This document shows, piece after piece, positions 41,785 through 50,448 of a stretch of DNA of 64,000 nt. The notes beneath the pieces were generated by a model. That model saw only the letters and a list, made by a program, of their open reading frames with translations. It ran no database searches and was not told the DNA's origin. The position numbers were made by a program, and so were the translations under genes. This DNA comes from Spirochaetia bacterium (GTDB lineage Bacteria > Spirochaetota > Spirochaetia > UBA9216), in NCBI GenBank assembly GCA_963677925.2, contig CAXXYH010000004.1, positions 416,001 through 480,000 of the forward strand, given 5' to 3'. Every line of letters begins with the position of its first letter. Positions within the stretch are counted from its first letter, which is position 1.

Positions 41785-44179
41785 CTTCATCTCCCTTTGC
41801 AGGTCCATTGAGTCTGCTGAGGATTGATTTCAACTTTTCACTTAATGCTGTGGCTATATTAGCATTAGGAAGCGAATTTGTTAAGTTATTTATGAAGCTG
41901 AATGTTTCACCAACCTTTTTCTTTGAAAGCGGAGGAGTATATTTTACGGGGAAGGGTCCTTCTGTCTCTTCAAGCTGCGTTTCGGTCTCTTTTTCAGAGT
42001 CTTCTGTGTTCAGTTTTTTCAGCAGACCCGGATCTCCGTGAAGTTTGGATTTAAGTGCTGCAAGTTTCAGCCGTTCCTCGCTGTACACGTATTCTTTCTG
42101 TTTATCTTTAGGAAGAAAGGAGGTAAGGCGATCCAGATAGCCGAATATATTTTCTTCCGGTTCCTCATCCTCTTCTTCTTCCTCGTCCTCAATAGGAACA
42201 AAATCTTCTGAATCGAAATTTTCATCCTCAGATTCTGGTTCTTCAGAGACGGCTGCTTCGGTTTCATTATCTGCTTCCGGTTCGGGGTCTTCTTCAGGTT
42301 CGGGGTCCGGAGGCTGCTGTTTTATAATAATAGGGGAAGTTTCCAGTTTGATTGTAAAGGGGTTGCCGAGGCCGGGAAATCCGCCAGGTTCTCTTTTTAT
42401 CTCTTCTTTGGTCTCAATCTCTTTTTTCTCCGGAATTTCATCCTCTTCCTCGGGTTCCGGGATGAACTCATCTTCATCGGTAATTGTCAGTGTTTCTGTG
42501 TCTTCATCGAAAAGGATAACCGGATCAATTCCGCCGATATCCAGAATCGGAACATATTCATTGCCTATATCTTTCAGTCCGTCAAAAAGAAAGCTTTTTT
42601 CCTCATGCCCGATTGGGTTATCATCATAGCTGCTGAAAAGCGCTTCAAGGTTTTTTTCCCACTCACGGCTGTATTTTCTTGCGTATTCGGAAGCCATTTC
42701 TTCATAGAGCTGAAGATCAAGATTCAATTTATTTAAATCCAGGTTGTCTGTATTTTCATTTCTTAGTGTCGCCAGCTTTTCAGCGGTCTTAAGTGCTGTT
42801 TCAGTGTCCCCCGTCTCTCTCGCTGTTGCTGCCGTCTGTTCAAGGATTTCAATGTTTTCGGGATCATGTTCAAGGATACCAAGGAGAACAGAGAGGGCTT
42901 TGTCATAATCTTCTTTTTCAAGATAAAGCCGGGAAAGCAGTTTCGCAGTTTCCGCATCACCCGGCTTTTTCTGATATACCTTTTCGCATTCTTCTATAGC
43001 GGCGTCCAGTTTGTTTTCGGACTTTAAAAGAAGGGCAAGCTGCATCCGGTTTTCATGCGATTCCGGGTCTATCAGAAGACCTTTCCGGTATGTATTGATT
43101 GCTTTGCTTTTTTTTCCGCTGCGGTTCATCTGCCTGGCAAGAGAAAACCATGCGCGGCTTTCCTCACTGTTACGGTCAAGAACATAACGGATATGCTGAA
43201 AGGCTTCGTTGTATTTTCCGGTATCTATAAGAATATTGCCCAGCAGCAGGCGGAGGTTCAGATTGTTTTCCTCATTTTCCAGATATGTCCGAAGCAGGTT
43301 TTCTGCCTTTTTATAATCTCTCCGCTTGAAATAAATTTCAGCAAGACTGGCCGCAGCGGGTGCATAATCAGGATGTCTGGTAATCAGATGATAGAGTTTA
43401 AGCTCCGCCTCTTTTTCGTCTCCCTTTTTTAACAGGAGTTCGGCGGAGCGGCATTCCGCCTCCCGGTTTTCCGGATCAAGTTCCAGCACCCTGCTGTAAA
43501 CTCTGTCTGCTTCTCCGGGATTCTTGTCTCTAAGTATATCACCGAGAGCTAAAAGGCATTCCTCCCACCCCGGATTTGCTTTTAAGGCATGACGATATTC
43601 CGCTTCTGCCTTTCCGGGATTTCCGGTTTTCCGGTATAGATTTCCAAGGTTAAAATGGAGTGCCGGATTGTTGGGATCTGCTGCAAGCCCGTCTTTAAGT
43701 AAGCTTTCTGCTTCCTTTCCCCGCCCTTTTTCAAGAAGCATAATAGCAAAATTATTGTACGACTGTGTAAAGCTGCTGTCCTTCTGAATTGAAAGCCGGT
43801 AAATTTGTTCTGCTTTTTCTGTATCGCCGAGGTTTCTGTGTATATTTGCAATATTGAATATTATGTCGGCGCGATCTTTTGCCAGCTGGTAGGCCTTCTG
43901 GGCTGCGTCGAGGGCTGATCGGTATTCACGGCGCTTCTGGTGAAGCAGTGCAATATTTATCCATGGTTCCGGATTTTTTGGTTCAAGTGCTATTATCCGG
44001 TCAAATGATTCGAATGCATTTGAATACCGGTTCTGTCTTGCATAGACATTACCCAGCATAAGCAGACTGCTAACATCTTCAGGATCCTCCCTGACTGCCC
44101 TTCTGCAAAGTTTTTCCGCCCGGATTAAATCTCCGGTCATGACTGCATTTCTTGCTCTTGTAAGTAACTGGCTGCTCAT
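41774..44179 (-). CDS. Large TPR protein with acidic low-complexity C-terminal region
   Basis: Many consecutive TPR-like repeats; E/D/P-rich tract; no signal peptide. Confidence 0.88.
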   Translation of the reverse strand: MSSQLLTRARNAVMTGDLIRAEKLCRRAVREDPEDVSSLLMLGNVYARQNRYSNAFESFDRIIALEPKNPEPWINIALLHQKRREYRSALDAAQKAYQLAKDRADIIFNIANIHRNLGDTEKAEQIYRLSIQKDSSFTQSYNNFAIMLLEKGRGKEAESLLKDGLAADPNNPALHFNLGNLYRKTGNPGKAEAEYRHALKANPGWEECLLALGDILRDKNPGEADRVYSRVLELDPENREAECRSAELLLKKGDEKEAELKLYHLITRHPDYAPAAASLAEIYFKRRDYKKAENLLRTYLENEENNLNLRLLLGNILIDTGKYNEAFQHIRYVLDRNSEESRAWFSLARQMNRSGKKSKAINTYRKGLLIDPESHENRMQLALLLKSENKLDAAIEECEKVYQKKPGDAETAKLLSRLYLEKEDYDKALSVLLGILEHDPENIEILEQTAATARETGDTETALKTAEKLATLRNENTDNLDLNKLNLDLQLYEEMASEYARKYSREWEKNLEALFSSYDDNPIGHEEKSFLFDGLKDIGNEYVPILDIGGIDPVILFDEDTETLTITDEDEFIPEPEEEDEIPEKKEIETKEEIKREPGGFPGLGNPFTIKLETSPIIIKQQPPDPEPEEDPEPEADNETEAAVSEEPESEDENFDSEDFVPIEDEEEEEDEEPEENIFGYLDRLTSFLPKDKQKEYVYSEERLKLAALKSKLHGDPGLLKKLNTEDSEKETETQLEETEGPFPVKYTPPLSKKKVGETFSFINNLTNSLPNANIATALSEKLKSILSRLNGPAKGDEDEE

Positions 44180-45678
44180 TGATTGGTCCTGAGTAAGGCG
44201 GATGGTCTGGCACTGATTTCTTTTGAAAAGCGGCTTTCCTGAGAATTTTCAGAGGAATCGTAGGATGTCACCGCAAAGTAGTATATCTGGCCGTTTTTAA
44301 GTCCGGTGAGAGTTATTTCTGTGTTATCGCCTGTGTCTACAGGAGAAGGTCCCTGAACGGAAACTGAACTGAAATAGTATCCGGGCTTCTCGCCGTAGTA
44401 GACTTTATATCCGCTGATATCGGAGTCATTTACCCGGTTCCAGCTTAACCTCACACTTCCGTTTCCGCTTTCCGCAGTTATTTGTTCGGGCGGCAGCGGC
44501 GGAAGGTTCCGTTCATACTGCAGTCTGATTTCTGAGAGCACAGGAGAATTTTTTCCTGTACCATCGGGGTAAAGATCCGCCTTAATCTGCACAAAACGTC
44601 CCCTGACAGACGGCGGAAGCAGCTGGTCGGGTTTAAACTGAACCCATGAAGGTTTGGATGAGGAGGAACTGAAGTAATCCTCCGAAATACGGTAGTAATA
44701 GAAAATATCGGTTTTACCGGGTTTTCTTGCAACAGTAGATATTCTCAGCAGTCTGCAGCCGCTGTTCTGCAGATCAAATACAGAAGTTGAGGCTGAGCCT
44801 CCGGAAGTTCCAAATATGGATATATCAGGTTCAGAAAAGGCTCTGGTTAATCTAAGTTCATCAAGATACCCGGAATAACTTTTACCCAGGATTATATTTG
44901 CCGGTTTCTGATTTCCTATAACCGCGGCGAACATTTCTCCGGTTTCACGCCCACTCGAGTTTGCGTATGTAATAACTTCAGGGATTCCATCAATCAGGTA
45001 TTCTATCAGCCCTGTTTCACTGTTATACCGGATAAGGTGATGGTGCCAGATCCCCGGGATCATAACACCGGTAGATGTAAGTTCAATCATGGTTTCTGAA
45101 AAGTCTGCCGGCAGGAAGAAATTTTCAAAAACCCAGTTCAGCCGGCGCCCGGATATAACACAAAGTATGGTCTGCTGAAGTGTCATCTCTCCGGATTTTA
45201 TGGCTCCGCTCCACTGGAATATCTTCTCACCTTCAGACAGCCGGATTGGGTACAGCCAGAACTCAATAGAGAAATCATTGATTTTCCCGTTTCCCGCGGC
45301 CAGAAGGGCGGCTCTTCCAGGCGAAAGTTCAATAAAGGCGTTATCACCGGGAAAGGCTCCGGCCTGCTCTCCTAGTTTTCTTTCCTTATCAGTCGTGAGA
45401 ATTCCCTGATTCCTGACCACATTATAATTTCCGCTTCGGTCCATTATATTTCCATTGAAGTGGATGAGCAAATCAGTGTCATCAGTAACCTGGTATTCGT
45501 TGTTCTTCAGCTGAATGTTTGACATTCCCTGAGCTGATTCCGAGTAGGTAATATTATCTCTTATACTAATCTGATCCCAGCTGCCGTTTCCGACAATAAT
45601 TTCCTGTGAGAATACGGCTGTTGCTGATACCAGAAAGATTAAAAAGACTGTTATCAGTATTTTCGGTGTTTTAAACAT
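44176..45678 (-). CDS. Exported LamG-like jelly-roll + fibronectin type III protein
   Basis: Signal peptide; FSIEFW, WHHH, YSGYLDELR (LamG); LSW..GYKVYY..LTGLKNG..YYFAVTSY (FN3). Confidence 0.85.
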   Translation of the reverse strand: MFKTPKILITVFLIFLVSATAVFSQEIIVGNGSWDQISIRDNITYSESAQGMSNIQLKNNEYQVTDDTDLLIHFNGNIMDRSGNYNVVRNQGILTTDKERKLGEQAGAFPGDNAFIELSPGRAALLAAGNGKINDFSIEFWLYPIRLSEGEKIFQWSGAIKSGEMTLQQTILCVISGRRLNWVFENFFLPADFSETMIELTSTGVMIPGIWHHHLIRYNSETGLIEYLIDGIPEVITYANSSGRETGEMFAAVIGNQKPANIILGKSYSGYLDELRLTRAFSEPDISIFGTSGGSASTSVFDLQNSGCRLLRISTVARKPGKTDIFYYYRISEDYFSSSSSKPSWVQFKPDQLLPPSVRGRFVQIKADLYPDGTGKNSPVLSEIRLQYERNLPPLPPEQITAESGNGSVRLSWNRVNDSDISGYKVYYGEKPGYYFSSVSVQGPSPVDTGDNTEITLTGLKNGQIYYFAVTSYDSSENSQESRFSKEISARPSALLRTNQ

Positions 45679-45739: not shown

Positions 45740-47530
45740 ATGGATAAGCTTAAAGCTGTGGCTGCAGAATTTCCAGGACTTCCCGGTGTTTATATAATGA
45801 AAAACATTTCAGGGAAAGTAATTTATGTCGGAAAGGCTATAAATCTGAAAAAAAGGGTCAGCTCCTATTTTCTGGGAAAGAAGGATCCTAAAACCAGTGT
45901 TCTTGTAAAAAAAATCTCAACAATTGAACACATCGTCACTGATTCCGAGTATGAAGCTCTTCTCCTGGAAAACATACTGATAAAAAAATACAACCCGAGA
46001 TACAATATCCGCCTTAAAGACGGAAAGACCTATCCTGTAATCAGAATTACCAATGAAGAATTTCCACAGGTTTTCAAAACGCGCAGGATTATCCGTGACG
46101 GTTCCAAATATTTCGGACCCTTCGCTTCGGCGGGGCTGCTTAATGTTTACATAGACACAATAGAAAAGATCTTTCCGCTCAGGCGCTGCCGTGGAGCCCT
46201 GAAAAAAAGGCAGAATCCCTGTCTCTACTACCATATAGGCCGCTGTTCGGCACCCTGTGCCGGGAAAATCTCAGCCGAAGACTACGGCAGTATTATTGCC
46301 CAGGTTGAGGAACTAATATCCGGTGACAGTGAAGATCTGAAAAACTGGCTGAATGATAGGATGCAGGAAGCTTCTGAAAAGCTGGAATTTGAAAAGGCTG
46401 CCGGATTCAGGGATGCGATTATAGCTGCGGAATCAATTGAAAATGAGGCTGGTCAGAATATAATCGATTTTAATGAAATTACCCGTGATTATATTGCCTG
46501 TGACTCCTGGAATGATAAATACACATTTACTGTTCTTCAGATGAGGGGCGGAAAACTTACCGGACGTGAGTTGTTCAGGAATGATTTTCCCGGTGGAGAT
46601 GAAGAAGCCTTCGAGCAGTTTGTTGTACAGTTCTATTCAGACGGGAATGAGATTCCCCGGCAGCTTTATTTTTCAAAGCTTTTCGATACCGTGAATCTGA
46701 AGAATTTTTTCATCTCGGAACTGGAACATGACATTGAAATGTTTTTTCCGGACAAGGGCAGACATTTTTCGGTTGTAAAGATGGCTGAAGAGAATGCCCG
46801 GCAGGATATCCTCAAAAGGAAGAAGGATGCCGGTGATGTCGAAGGACTTGAAAGACTTAAGGAGACGCTGGGACTTAAGAAGGTTCCGGCAAGGATTGAG
46901 GGCTTTGATATAGCCCAGCTGTCGGGAAAATATCCGGTTGCTTCTCTGATATCATTTGTAAACGGCATCCCTGATAAAACAGGATATAGACATTTTAATC
47001 TGAAGACTCTTGATGGAAAAATTGATGACTTTGCCTCTGTTCGAGAGGCCGTAACAAGACGGTATACAAGGGTTTTAAACGAGAATCTGCCGCAGCCCGA
47101 TCTGGTTCTGATCGACGGCGGACCCGGTCAGGTAAGTGCGGCAAGAGGTGTTTTGAACGCGCTGGGTCTGGAGGATATTCCGGTTATCGGACTTGCCAAG
47201 AAAAATGAAGAAATATATCTGGATAGATTCAGCAAACCGCTGAACCTGCCGGAGGGCGATCCTGCTTTGAAAATTCTTCAGTACGTAAGGGATGAAACTC
47301 ACCGTTTTGCTACCGGTTTGAACAAGAAGCACAGGGAGAGGGATTCGAGGTTTTCATTGCTTGAAGATGTTTCAGGAATCGGTCCAGCCAAGAGCAGGAA
47401 ACTGATGGAAACTTACGGTTCACTCAAGGGTATCGCAGCAGCAGGGAGGGAAGAGGTGGCTAAAACGGCCGGGATTTCAGAGGCCGCGGCAGAGGCCCTT
47501 TTTGAAAAAATAAATAATGAAAAAATTTGA
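45740..47530 (+). CDS. uvrC: Excinuclease ABC subunit C
   Basis: PGVY..YVGKA GIY-YIG, CLYYHIGRC, EGFDI, DGG, RDETHRFA, HhH. Confidence 0.97.
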   Translation: MDKLKAVAAEFPGLPGVYIMKNISGKVIYVGKAINLKKRVSSYFLGKKDPKTSVLVKKISTIEHIVTDSEYEALLLENILIKKYNPRYNIRLKDGKTYPVIRITNEEFPQVFKTRRIIRDGSKYFGPFASAGLLNVYIDTIEKIFPLRRCRGALKKRQNPCLYYHIGRCSAPCAGKISAEDYGSIIAQVEELISGDSEDLKNWLNDRMQEASEKLEFEKAAGFRDAIIAAESIENEAGQNIIDFNEITRDYIACDSWNDKYTFTVLQMRGGKLTGRELFRNDFPGGDEEAFEQFVVQFYSDGNEIPRQLYFSKLFDTVNLKNFFISELEHDIEMFFPDKGRHFSVVKMAEENARQDILKRKKDAGDVEGLERLKETLGLKKVPARIEGFDIAQLSGKYPVASLISFVNGIPDKTGYRHFNLKTLDGKIDDFASVREAVTRRYTRVLNENLPQPDLVLIDGGPGQVSAARGVLNALGLEDIPVIGLAKKNEEIYLDRFSKPLNLPEGDPALKILQYVRDETHRFATGLNKKHRERDSRFSLLEDVSGIGPAKSRKLMETYGSLKGIAAAGREEVAKTAGISEAAAEALFEKINNEKI

Positions 47531-47555
47531 CTTTTAGATCCAATTGGGCTAAATT
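47527..47555 (+). promoter_or_regulatory. sigma70 promoter of orphan RNA
   Basis: TTGACT-17-TAAATT overlapping the uvrC stop. Confidence 0.6.
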
Positions 47556-47561
47556 TATATT

Positions 47562-47762
47562 GTAAGAGGTAATCAAGCCGAAAGGCTCTAAAATGCAGCA
47601 AGGAGGAGAAAATGACTCCACCTAAATGGAACCGCCGGCAATGAGCCGGCTCACAGCAGATGTTATAGAGAGGTCATAGACCTATAAAAGAGTGAGAATT
47701 CAGCAGTCGCATAGAGACGCCTCTGAATTTTCTAAAGCCGGTAATCAGTCCGGCTTTTTTTT
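47562..47762 (+). ncRNA. Candidate ~200-nt structured RNA (6S-like rod or novel sRNA / micro-ORF mRNA)
   Basis: Own promoter and terminator; GC-richer than flanks; extensive pairing; no ORF of 60 aa or more in the ORF track on this strand. Confidence 0.6.
47734..47762 (+). terminator. Intrinsic terminator
   Basis: AAAGCCGG/CCGGCTTT with T8. Confidence 0.88.
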
Positions 47763-47823
47763 GTCCTGTTATTTCTACCGCTCTATTCAAAATCCGTCCT
47801 TTGTTAACAATTCTAAAATTTCT

Positions 47824-47852
47824 TTGATATTTTCTTTCATTCCATATATAGT
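47824..47852 (+). promoter_or_regulatory. sigma70 promoter of EEP gene
   Basis: TTGATA-17-TATAGT. Confidence 0.6.
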
Positions 47853-47872
47853 TTGAATATAAAGAGCTGAAA

Positions 47873-48901
47873 ATGAAAAAAAATCTGAATATTCTAATTA
47901 TTCTTTTAATTATGTCTGCTTCTGTTTTTGCGGAAGATATCAGCGTGCTTACGGTAAATGCCTGGCCCGGCCTTGATTACCGTGGGCTGATCTTTTCAGG
48001 TGAATACGAAACCGATGAAGTGCGGAACTTCAGAACTGAAATTCTTGAGAAAGAGTTTAGAGATCTCAATCCTGATATTGCAGTAATTACAGGTGCCAAT
48101 CCAGTTTCCGATTTCGCCGAACTTCTCTCGGAACCCCTTGGGATGTCTGCAGGCTACCGTATCTCGCGGAGCGGTTTCAGGATCGGCCCTGTCGGACTTC
48201 CGCTTAACCTTAAAGAAGGCGGTATAATTCTGGTTGATAATGAATATCCCAGTGAGGATATAGACTATAAAAACCTGAATCGTGGACTTTCATTTAAGAA
48301 CTTTTCTGCTTTCTCAAAGAATATGCATCAGATTTACTGCCGAAAGGCTGTCATTGATAATACAACCGTTTTTATATTTGCTGTAGAATGGAGAGAATCT
48401 ATCTTTGCAGATCGTGAAACACTTTCAATGCTGATGAATAACTACCTGTCAGGAGAACTTGAAGCCGAAGCTTATGCTGACCGTATCGATGACGCAGTTA
48501 AAGGCTCTGAAACAAGACTTAAGCAGGCGGAAGAAAGCCTGGCATTTATTAATAATATTGCAGGGGAGAATCCTGTAATCCTTATGGGCAGCCTTAACGG
48601 CCTTCCAGGAAGTCCTGAAATAAATCTGCTGAAAGACGCCGGGTTTACAGATGTCTTTGAATCTGTCGGCCGGGGAAAAGGCAATACTCTGGACAGTGAA
48701 CGAAACCCGAATATTGAAAAAGCCGGGGAAGATGCTGTACAGGGGGCATACAGAACCGACTATATCATGATCAGGGGAGACCGGCTCAAGGCGGTTTCTG
48801 CAAAGCTTGTATTTAACGAGGCTGTTTACGGTGTTTTTCCTTCGAACCGTTTTGGTGTGCAGGCAACCGTCAGATTGACAGCCGCCCCTTCTTCTCGATG
48901 A
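47873..48901 (+). CDS. Exported endonuclease/exonuclease/phosphatase-fold protein, catalytic residues degenerate
   Basis: Signal peptide VFA|E; LTVN, PDI, ILMGSLN, GFTD, RTDYI, PSNRFGV. Confidence 0.78.
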   Translation: MKKNLNILIILLIMSASVFAEDISVLTVNAWPGLDYRGLIFSGEYETDEVRNFRTEILEKEFRDLNPDIAVITGANPVSDFAELLSEPLGMSAGYRISRSGFRIGPVGLPLNLKEGGIILVDNEYPSEDIDYKNLNRGLSFKNFSAFSKNMHQIYCRKAVIDNTTVFIFAVEWRESIFADRETLSMLMNNYLSGELEAEAYADRIDDAVKGSETRLKQAEESLAFINNIAGENPVILMGSLNGLPGSPEINLLKDAGFTDVFESVGRGKGNTLDSERNPNIEKAGEDAVQGAYRTDYIMIRGDRLKAVSAKLVFNEAVYGVFPSNRFGVQATVRLTAAPSSR

Positions 48902-49847
48902 GACAGTAGATATACATCTGGGCGGTAATTTCTTTCTGTTCCTGCCGTGTCGTCCTGAGTTTAATATCGTATTCGGCAGTCAGTGAAATTATTCTTTCAA
49001 TATCGCTTCTTTTATAGTGTTTCAGGGCTTCCGAGTAGGTTGCCTGGGCTTTCTTTCCTTTTATACCTGATTTAAAGCATGCGCTCTGAAAGCTTTCACC
49101 CATTTCCATTTCACGGGCCAGTCTGAGAAGGTTTCTCAGCTGCCAGAGAAGGCCGCTGAGCAGCTGTACCGTATTGCTGTCGCTGCCAAGCATGATCTTC
49201 TGCAGAATGTCCACAGAGCCGGGAAAATCGGCAGCTGCAATCCTGTTAAAGAGTGAGAAAACATTTTCCTCTTTTCCGTGGTAGAAGAAGGTCTCAATCT
49301 CATCCCTGCTTATAAATGCGCCTTCACCGAAAAACAATGCAAGTTTCTCACATTCTCTTTTCATATCAGCAGTGTTGTTTTCAATGAGATTCAGAAGCAG
49401 TTCTACTGCATCAGTATCTATGGAAATTCTGCGGTTCTTAAAAAAGCCTGAAAGCCAGCCTTTTTTCTGGTTGTCAAAAAGTTCCCAGAATATCTTTGAG
49501 TTCTTTTTCGGGATGTGTTTTCCCAGACCGTTTTTAAGCGATGTTTCATCGGTCAGAAAGACTATTACCGTATCAGGAGCGGGTTTTTTAAGATAAGCTC
49601 CAAACTCATCAGCTTCTGTTTTTTTCAGCAGTTCAGCCTGCCCGATTATGAAAATTCTGGCGGCGGCAAATAGAGATCCATTCTTTATCTGCGAAAGAAT
49701 CTCCTGTACTGATGTTTCAAATGGATAGAAACGGTGTGTTTCAGGGGCTTCTCCGTTTTTATCGGCAAGTCCGGTCTTTATCTGATTGAGAAATATCTGC
49801 TTTTCTCCTTCTTCGGGCCCGGCCAGGAGCCAGCAGTGATCAGTCAT
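48870..49847 (-). CDS. holA: DNA polymerase III delta subunit
   Basis: LLAGPEEGEK, SLF, ECEKL, NVFSL; follows lexA; start ATG 49847 or TTG 49859. Confidence 0.88.
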   Translation of the reverse strand: MTDHCWLLAGPEEGEKQIFLNQIKTGLADKNGEAPETHRFYPFETSVQEILSQIKNGSLFAAARIFIIGQAELLKKTEADEFGAYLKKPAPDTVIVFLTDETSLKNGLGKHIPKKNSKIFWELFDNQKKGWLSGFFKNRRISIDTDAVELLLNLIENNTADMKRECEKLALFFGEGAFISRDEIETFFYHGKEENVFSLFNRIAAADFPGSVDILQKIMLGSDSNTVQLLSGLLWQLRNLLRLAREMEMGESFQSACFKSGIKGKKAQATYSEALKHYKRSDIERIISLTAEYDIKLRTTRQEQKEITAQMYIYCLIEKKGRLSI

Positions 49848-50448
49848 AGTCCCTGACAATGCATTTTAGTTTTCCAAGAACTTTTACGTTCTGAGTATAT
49901 ATTGGAGGATAAACCGGGTTTTCGGCCTTCAGCTTGACCCTGTTTTTTTCCTTGAAGAATCTTTTTAGTGTATAGGCTTCGTCATTAACCATGGCTACGA
50001 CAATATCTCCATTTTCAGCGGTCTGTCTGTGCGTAAAGATAGCAATATCCCCGTCAAGGATACCGGCCTCCTGCATACTGTCTCCGCTGACGTGAAGTGC
50101 GAAAAATTTACCGCCTGAAAATCTTGCTGCCGGCATATTAAGCATGCCTTCATAGTTTTCCTCTGCAAAAAGAGGCAGACCCGCAGCAACCTTTCCAAGT
50201 ATTGGAATGTTTACTGTTTCAGGCTTGTTTTCATTTTCGTTATCGATAATCTCAATTGTTCTTGAGCGGTTTCCGTCACATCGAATCCGGCCCTTTTTCT
50301 CCAGAGCCTTTATATGATCGTACGCGCCTTTTACTGATATATTAAATGAGGCCGCCATCTCGCGAATAGTCGGCGGATAGCTGTGCTTATCTATATAGTA
50401 TTTGATAAAATTGAGTGTCTCTTCCTGTCTTTTTGTCAGTCCCTTCAT
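49840..50448 (-). CDS. lexA: LexA repressor
   Basis: LTKRQ, YPPTIRE, VAAG cleavage site, GDSM Ser, TLKR Lys. Confidence 0.95.
   Translation of the reverse strand: MKGLTKRQEETLNFIKYYIDKHSYPPTIREMAASFNISVKGAYDHIKALEKKGRIRCDGNRSRTIEIIDNENENKPETVNIPILGKVAAGLPLFAEENYEGMLNMPAARFSGGKFFALHVSGDSMQEAGILDGDIAIFTHRQTAENGDIVVAMVNDEAYTLKRFFKEKNRVKLKAENPVYPPIYTQNVKVLGKLKCIVRDYD

Follow-up and report, generated by a model that had tools for sequence, protein, structure and literature searches.

A Conserved Small RNA Gene with a Predicted Proline-Proline Mini-ORF Downstream of uvrC in the Class Spirochaetia

Spirochaetes outside Borrelia and Leptospira have, to our knowledge, almost no characterised small RNAs. 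In one member of the class Spirochaetia (GenBank assembly GCA_963677925.2), the DNA that follows uvrC raises the question of whether a separate RNA gene lies there and, if so, of what kind. We present here an analysis of this element, contained in a 64,000-nt window (contig CAXXYH010000004.1, positions 416,001 to 480,000, forward strand), from the first letter of which all window coordinates are counted. A preliminary description, made from the letters alone, had proposed either a divergent 6S RNA or an undescribed small RNA. Comparison with related genomes leaves us highly confident that the element is a real, new, conserved, and independent RNA gene and not a 6S RNA. It carries a predicted short open reading frame (mini-ORF), unnoticed in the preliminary description, with two consecutive proline codons (Pro-Pro) close to its start. 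Literature searches, supplementary files apart, found no published account of the element.

Transcription unit and distribution

The predicted RNA runs from a putative sigma-70-type promoter to an intrinsic terminator (Table 1). Both were recovered by a scan exactly where the preliminary description had placed them, as was a separate promoter (TTGATA-17-TATAGT, 47824-52) for the next gene. The promoter of the RNA gene is preceded by an A-tract, and the uvrC stop codon (TGA, 47528-30) falls inside its -35 hexamer. The combination TTGAC-N17-TAAATT is found again upstream of the element in relatives, and promoter and terminator are kept at uvrC-linked and unlinked loci alike, which supports the element as an independent transcription unit. 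No terminator lies between uvrC and the RNA gene, so that uvrC transcripts probably run through it. The terminator is symmetrically flanked (A-tract, stem, T-tract) and faces a convergent gene at many loci; it therefore probably serves both directions.

The whole window was scanned against Rfam 15 using cmscan at the gathering score, with no match. A permissive scan of 47400-47900 (E ≤ 10) returned no 6S RNA, only junk at E > 1, and among 13 diverse relatives neither 6S nor any other family matched the element, the only hits being two flanking tRNAs. The RNA family is thus apparently undescribed. Together with promoters and terminators conserved even away from uvrC, this favors the earlier suggestion of a stand-alone, undescribed small RNA.

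A search for homologues, proposed in the preliminary description, found the stretch conserved in its family and beyond: a BLAST search with 226 nt was positive for 14 of 41 relatives, among them 9 of the 10 other genomes of the family. Scanning one genome per species for the terminator pattern yielded 42 stretches, 30 of which have Spirochaetota record titles. All but one of these 30 hold the element and an upstream TTGAY-N16-19-TAnnnT motif; for one of the 29 (L055, identical in sequence to L009) the regular expression matched inside the element, and the likely promoter was read by eye. The remaining stretch (L038, ~1433-1669) belongs to another class (Leptospirales record), where an operon of two tRNAs terminates in the same AAAGCCGGTAATCAGACCGGCTTTTTT hairpin. 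The 12 non-spirochaete genomes have the hairpin without such a promoter or the rest of the element.

Two further searches covered the class. A covariance model (R2) of hairpin 5 (HP5) and the terminator, built on 24 sequences, matches 40 of 151 class genomes at E ≤ 0.01, among them 6/6 of family f1, 2/2 of f3, 4/4 of f15, 4/6 of f24, and 5/6 of f30, with one match in the present genome. The weakest of these matches are uncertain, as terminator-only controls reached 22-34 bits with the first model. Two or three R2 matches per genome occur in G027, G104, and G112, so some lineages may carry paralogous 3′ modules. The 5′ module, searched as GGAG, CCRCC, an 11-nt gap, SCCGG, a loop, and CCGGS, matches 167 of 401 class genomes, a total that overstates the true count because high-GC genomes also match a reversed control pattern. 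Matches are frequent in f1 (9/10), f8 (16/17), f9 (7/7), f15 (5/5), and f24 (12/12) and nearly absent in f26 (0/37) and f12 (1/38). In other classes of the phylum, a stricter pattern matches 6 of 135 genomes, and by eye these look like chance. The present genome contains the terminator motif once and the ORF module once; the element is single copy, and a multicopy or repeat element was rejected. At one locus (L100, G226:C10), a direct tandem repeat of ~45 nt lies just after the element's terminator.

Synteny was surveyed at 59 loci, a set that retains some duplicates between collections. Directly upstream and on the same strand lies uvrC at 27 of them, and holA (DNA polymerase III delta subunit) lies downstream on the opposite strand at 26, either right after the terminator or, as here, beyond one inserted gene. 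Other neighbors are unrelated housekeeping genes (clpP, era, GyrB-like, arginyl-tRNA-protein transferase, PhoU-domain, and hexokinase genes). An initial survey of 47 loci had placed the closest ORF downstream on the opposite strand in about half of them. With the downstream ORF so often facing the element and the other neighbors unrelated, a general role as leader or attenuator of a downstream gene was rejected. The comparison shows that this undescribed RNA is kept in many families of the class Spirochaetia and that its ancestral position is between uvrC and a convergent holA.

The inserted gene of the present locus (47873-48901, +) is a 342-amino-acid (aa) ORF with a signal-peptide-like N terminus and no Pfam match, situated between the RNA gene and holA (48870-49859, -), with which it shares a 32-nt overlap at the 3′ ends. 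Its homologues take the same position at 5 loci, only in this genome's family. Positions 44176-45678 (-), divergent from uvrC, encode a 500-aa protein in which Laminin_G_3 and fibronectin type III domains are present.

Table 1. Predicted features of the RNA gene and the gene upstream of it (window coordinates; SD, Shine-Dalgarno)
Feature	Positions	Strand	Basis or remarks
uvrC	45740-47530	+	Pfam UvrC domains; RNA gene directly downstream
Promoter of RNA gene	47527..47555	+	-35 TTGACT 47527-32, 17-nt spacer, -10 TAAATT 47550-55; scan match
Predicted RNA, ~200 nt	47562..47762	+	5′ end placed from -10 hexamer; 3′ end at T-run
5′-proximal SD-like GAGGU and HP1 (AGCC-GAAA-GGCU, 47576-87)	47566..47587	+	GAGGU invariant in 8 family members
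HP2: SD AGGAGGAG (47601-08) with CUCCACCU (47616-23), AUG in loop	47601..47623	+	96% paired; invariant within family
Mini-ORF, 10 codons (ATG ACT CCA CCT AAA TGG AAC CGC CGG CAA TGA; MTPPKWNRRQ)	47612..47644	+	Comparative
Pro-Pro codons of mini-ORF	47618-23	+	10-nt spacer to HP3 at 47624-33; stop in HP3 loop
HP3: GCCGGC-AAUGA-GCCGGC	47634..47650	+	Covariation
HP4: AGGUC-AUA-GACCU	47671..47683	+	Sequence differs between species
HP5, conserved base (A)GUGAGAAUUCAG ... CUGAAUUUUCU	47691..47733	+	Covariation
Intrinsic terminator AAAGCCGG-UAAUCAGU-CCGGCUUU and U-run	47734..47762	+	Scan; hairpin 47734-47757, T-run to 47762

Local hairpins and the 6S question

The preliminary description had offered two folds, a 6S-like rod (Fold A) and a chain of local hairpins (Fold B). 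Letter-by-letter checking found every hairpin of Fold B in place, and likewise the helices of Fold A (AGAGGT/GCCTCT, CTCTA/TAGAG, TGC/GCA, ATGACT/GGTCAT, and the apical GCCGGC-AATGA-GCCGGC). All of 200 dinucleotide shuffles fold less well than the RNA strand (z = -3.4), whose minimum free energy (MFE) and centroid structures are both Fold-B-like chains. In an alignment of 8 family members, 91.6% of Fold B cells are paired, a value reached by 9 of 500 shuffles. The losses are confined to HP1 (75% of cells paired) and HP4 (62%), both of which MAFFT misaligns. Read by eye, HP1 varies in length and sequence while remaining a hairpin with compensatory changes, and each family member has at the HP4 position a hairpin of different sequence and length. 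For the pairs specific to the rod of Fold A, over 8 relatives, the paired fraction is 70.6% of cells; the shuffled value is 69.2%, and 102 of 500 shuffles reach the observed one. No consistent long-range pairing was found, the single-sequence MFE folds of 35 variants disagreeing with one another.

HP5 and HP3 covary. Compensatory changes occur at 14/14 pairs of HP5 and 95.2% of its cells are paired (24 sequences from many families, in a model-fitted alignment); none of 500 shuffles does as well, and sliding the partner columns lowers the value to 35-59%. Sequence conservation is seen in the linker UUUCUAAA and in the 5′ strand at the base of HP5 (RUGAGAUCUG). HP3 also has 95.2% of cells paired, with compensatory change at 4 of 6 pairs, among 38 relatives whose selection demanded a hairpin at this place. 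All through the class the terminator retains its GCCGG/CCGGC stem; its loop is conserved in the core clade only. The loop UAAUCA was considered as a conserved binding site and rejected; its invariance is a product of the search pattern, and model-based matches vary outside the core clade. Comparison thus shows a predicted RNA organized in consecutive local hairpins (HP1 to HP5 and the terminator), not in a 6S-like rod.

A genuine 6S RNA (RF00013) lies elsewhere in the genome (G000:C4:2351022-2351197, -), scoring 66 bits against a cutoff of 46.4; csrA (C4:2339507-2339662) is found ~11 kb from it. The element resembles 6S RNA in its ~200-nt length, its single copy, and its housekeeping-type promoter and gene neighborhood. 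It differs in having no match to the 6S model, an unconserved rod, and a predicted ORF, and we know of no 6S RNA with a translated ORF. With no Rfam match, a true 6S RNA elsewhere, and a rod that relatives do not keep, the 6S reading fails.

The mini-ORF and its possible functions

Two collections of sites bear on whether the mini-ORF is translated. The first comprises 32 unique sites chosen regardless of start codon by an SD-like motif, CCRCCN, 9-11 nt, a hairpin, an upstream promoter, and a downstream terminator. An in-frame ATG, GTG, or TTG is present no more than 12 nt upstream of Pro-Pro at 32/32 sites, whereas the other two frames have one at 0 and 3. The second comprises 38 unique variants, in all of which Pro-Pro is present but required by the selection pattern. 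Start codons among these are ATG (34), GTG (3), and TTG (1), separated from Pro-Pro by no codon in 6, one in 20, and two in 12, and the stop is TAA (17), TGA (16), or TAG (5). The SD-to-start spacing is 4-9 nt in 37 and 2 nt in one. The first Pro codon is CCA in 19 and CCG in 19, never CCT or CCC, although these two account for 54% of the Pro codons in the long ORFs of this genome; the second is CCT (26), CCA (10), or CCG (2). Pro-Pro is followed by HP3 after 10 nt in 35 variants, 9 nt in 2, and 11 nt in 1. Peptide length ranges over 9-28 residues, with the stop in the HP3 loop in 16, in its 5′ arm in 1, and beyond HP3 in 21. Within one genus-level group, TGA, TAA, and TAG occur at the same position, and codon 2 is ACT, ACG, or ACA. 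In the complete 2.5-Mb genomes of family f5/g9, the encoded peptide begins MTPPKREGR. Given the in-frame starts, alternative starts, all three stops, synonymous changes, and SD spacing, we think it likely that the mini-ORF is translated. What selection appears to maintain is initiation, Pro-Pro, and the distance to HP3, rather than a folded peptide.

The 3′ half can occur without this ORF. Short variants of 90-140 nt, present in several lineages, keep only a 5′ hairpin, HP5, and the terminator, and this persistence points to a role of the 3′ module in its own right. Variants of ~117 nt follow a PhoU-domain gene at four loci (L022, L023, L025, and L039); a hexokinase gene comes next in L022 and homologues of it do so in L023 and L039.

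The full explanation that we prefer, with about an even chance of being right, is a dual-function RNA, in which a ribosome-engaging Pro-Pro mini-ORF is joined to a 3′ module that acts at the RNA level. How the two might be coupled is more tentative, and we would sooner doubt than assert that the ORF works as a pause sensor. In such a mechanism the strong SD would load a ribosome, Pro-Pro would occupy its P and A sites, and HP3 would stand just outside the mRNA entry channel. By the usual dimensions of the ribosome, placing the second Pro codon in the P site would put the first base of HP3 near +14, and the anti-SD could still reach the SD. The combination of a strong SD, an early Pro-Pro drawn from a restricted codon set, and an abutting GC hairpin would make a plausible pause cassette. 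Ribosome dwell time, dependent on elongation factor P (EF-P) or prolyl-tRNA, could then set the stability or conformation of the RNA, and the effector at the RNA level would be the deeply conserved 3′ module, made up of HP5, the linker UUUCUAAA, and the terminator. That module is more likely a platform for binding a protein or the ribosome than an antisense seed. A still more doubtful extension is a class-wide, stand-alone sensor of translation capacity, in which an abundant decoy mini-mRNA would report EF-P, prolyl-tRNA, or Mg2+ status by how long a ribosome dwells between the strong SD and a hairpin placed exactly 10 nt beyond Pro-Pro, and HP5 and the terminator would signal in trans.

Several observations weigh against the dual-function explanation or parts of it. 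The residue after Pro-Pro is most often Y (12), V (10), K (6), E (4), or D (4), mostly not contexts known to be the strongest for EF-P-dependent stalling, and the C-terminal part and stop position of the mini-ORF vary. The short variants lack both ORF and HP3, and a search of 5 such genomes for the ORF module at another site found none, two pattern matches looking like chance; the ORF is thus dispensable for whatever the 3′ module does. The pairing of HP2, whose SD core AGGAGG pairs with CUCCACCU, is largely inherent in the complementarity of GGAGG and CCNCC. Its helix extends outward by 1.32 bp against 1.39 in a cross-species null, so sequestration of the SD may be a by-product. Inward, the extension is 1.38 against 0.83 in the null, with 1 of 2,000 shuffles as high, a figure inflated by relatedness. 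HP2 as a selected SD-sequestering hairpin was therefore not established. Finally, choosing sets by pattern or hairpin filter biases them towards the very features that are then counted.

Among the alternatives, the one that survives best, unlikely as we hold it to be, is a tiny-protein gene: the peptide of 9-28 residues (M-x0-2-P-P-[YVKED]-x3-R...) would be the product, and the hairpins would serve only as mRNA stabilizers and terminator. The coding signatures (in-frame start, variety of start and stop codons, SD spacing) fit this, yet conservation is limited to M-x-PP and the HP3-encoded xGC-CGG codons, and length (9-28 aa), C terminus, and Met-to-Pro-Pro spacing all vary. HP1 at the 5′ end and the stable 3′ hairpins are placed as stabilizers would be; the sequence conservation and covariation of HP5, however, far exceed what a stabilizer needs, and short variants retain the 3′ module without any ORF.

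Those same short variants, with the 3′ module alone conserved, are what a purely noncoding riboregulator or RNA-protein scaffold would lead one to expect, the ORF-like features then being by-products of constraints on the RNA. We regard this as improbable. The inherent complementarity of GGAGG and CCNCC could account for part of the pattern, but 32/32 in-frame starts, alternative starts, three stops, and an optimal SD spacing would not easily arise from such constraints alone, and the first Pro codon is never CCU, the best-pairing choice. The loops, usual antisense seeds, are not conserved. Neither Hfq (PF17209) nor ProQ (PF04352) gave a match in this genome, which is 99.6% complete, and an Hfq- or ProQ-dependent small RNA was rejected on that ground.

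Very unlikely, in our assessment, is an orphan ribosome-dependent attenuator of the trpL or mgtL type, in which a ribosome on the Pro codons would select between HP3 plus terminator and an antiterminator formed by the HP3 3′ arm and the terminator 5′ arm, so controlling read-through into downstream DNA, be it a sense gene or antisense to holA. The layout is trpL-like (regulatory codons, a stop near the first hairpin, a terminator), and a short ORF with consecutive regulatory Pro codons is present, Pro-Pro itself being required by the selection. HP3 and the terminator share a palindromic CCGG core through which a 2:3 pairing is possible, but such a core is indistinguishable from chance, and regions 2 and 3 lie ~90 nt apart, with two stable hairpins in between. 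A co-directional gene, that for the 342-aa protein, does follow at 5 loci of the family; here it has its own promoter, and no co-directional, functionally linked downstream gene emerged from the surveys of 47 and 59 loci, with their opposite-strand ORFs, convergent holA genes, and otherwise unrelated housekeeping neighbors. The short variants, moreover, keep the same terminator without HP3.

A sponge RNA titrating CsrA or another protein is highly improbable. The genome encodes CsrA, and GGA occurs in the SD and at 47628-30; these copies, however, lie in the HP2 stem or in nonconserved linkers rather than in hairpin loops, their number and position are not conserved, and the 5′ motif GAGGU has no GGA. 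An RNA of the CsrB/RsmZ type was rejected because no GGA is conserved in loops. The preliminary description had read repeated loop motifs as a sign of protein sponging, an idea that their lack of conservation undermines. CAUAGA at two apices and the recurrence of GGUAAUCA and AAGCCG at both ends are present in this sequence and probably due to chance, as relatives do not conserve them; AAUGA does occur in two loops, where in place of a sponge motif it supplies the predicted start (AUG, 47612) and stop (UGA, 47642) of the mini-ORF.

A divergent or second 6S RNA, suggested by the size and by a possible rod in this single sequence, has practically no chance, given that RF00013 does not match, a true 6S RNA lies elsewhere, the rod is at shuffle level, HP5 covaries, the entire 5′ half of the supposed rod is missing from the short variants, and the element carries a predicted ORF.

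Related systems and significance

The dual-function explanation can be set beside several known systems. In mgtL and mgtP, a very short ORF has Pro codons near its start amid stem-loops, and the speed of the ribosome there is the signal. The element likewise has a very short ORF with early Pro codons among stem-loops. It differs in the number of its consecutive Pro codons, exactly two, in their fixed distance of 10 nt from a hairpin, and in being a stand-alone unit with a strong terminator, often facing a convergent gene, whereas mgtL and mgtP are 5′ leaders controlling a downstream gene. These Salmonella ORFs, of the mgtA and mgtCBR leaders, are reported to respond to EF-P (PMC5299641, PMC6460261).

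In Sinorhizobium, the trp attenuator RNA rnTrpL and its leader peptide peTrpL are both reported to function in trans (PMC7968998, PMC7298713). Like the element, rnTrpL is a small terminated RNA with a short ORF (~14 codons) and two consecutive regulatory codons. It is released from an attenuator upstream of trpE(G), whereas the element has no regulated downstream gene, Pro in place of Trp codons, and a large extra 3′ domain (HP4 and HP5).

Dual-function small RNAs such as SgrS/SgrT and RNAIII/hld (literature on such RNAs includes PMC12612679 and PMC12310071) are also independent small transcripts combining a structured part with a translated small ORF. At 9-28 codons, the ORF of the element is far shorter, with conservation confined to M-x-PP, and the element has no evident base-pairing seed. 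A term search of the 2025 review of dual-function RNAs (PMC12612679) returned no occurrence of spirochaet-, spirochet-, Borrelia, or proline.

A further likeness concerns RNA stability. The element's RNA could be protected by an SD-like sequence only a few bases from its 5′ terminus together with a ribosome kept on the short ORF, by analogy with STAB-SD and the ermC leader, although the 5′ GAGGU of the element may be partly paired. In Bacillus, the STAB-SD of cryIIIA and the ermC leader are 5′ stabilizers that act through ribosome binding or stalling.

The RNA family described here sits between two DNA-maintenance genes, uvrC and holA, and joins two things that are usually separate, namely, a structured RNA module of deep conservation and a Pro-Pro mini-ORF that resembles a leader peptide but has no gene to lead. 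If the mini-ORF is a pause device, ribosome-stalling sensors can act as free-standing RNAs. Even if it is not, the element offers an easily mutated system (start codon, Pro-Pro, 10-nt spacer, and HP3) for the study of early-elongation pausing and dual-function RNAs in a phylum of which the present genome has no Hfq or ProQ match. Should the sensor of translation capacity prove true, it would mean that ribosome-mediated sensing has been uncoupled from any cis-regulated gene.

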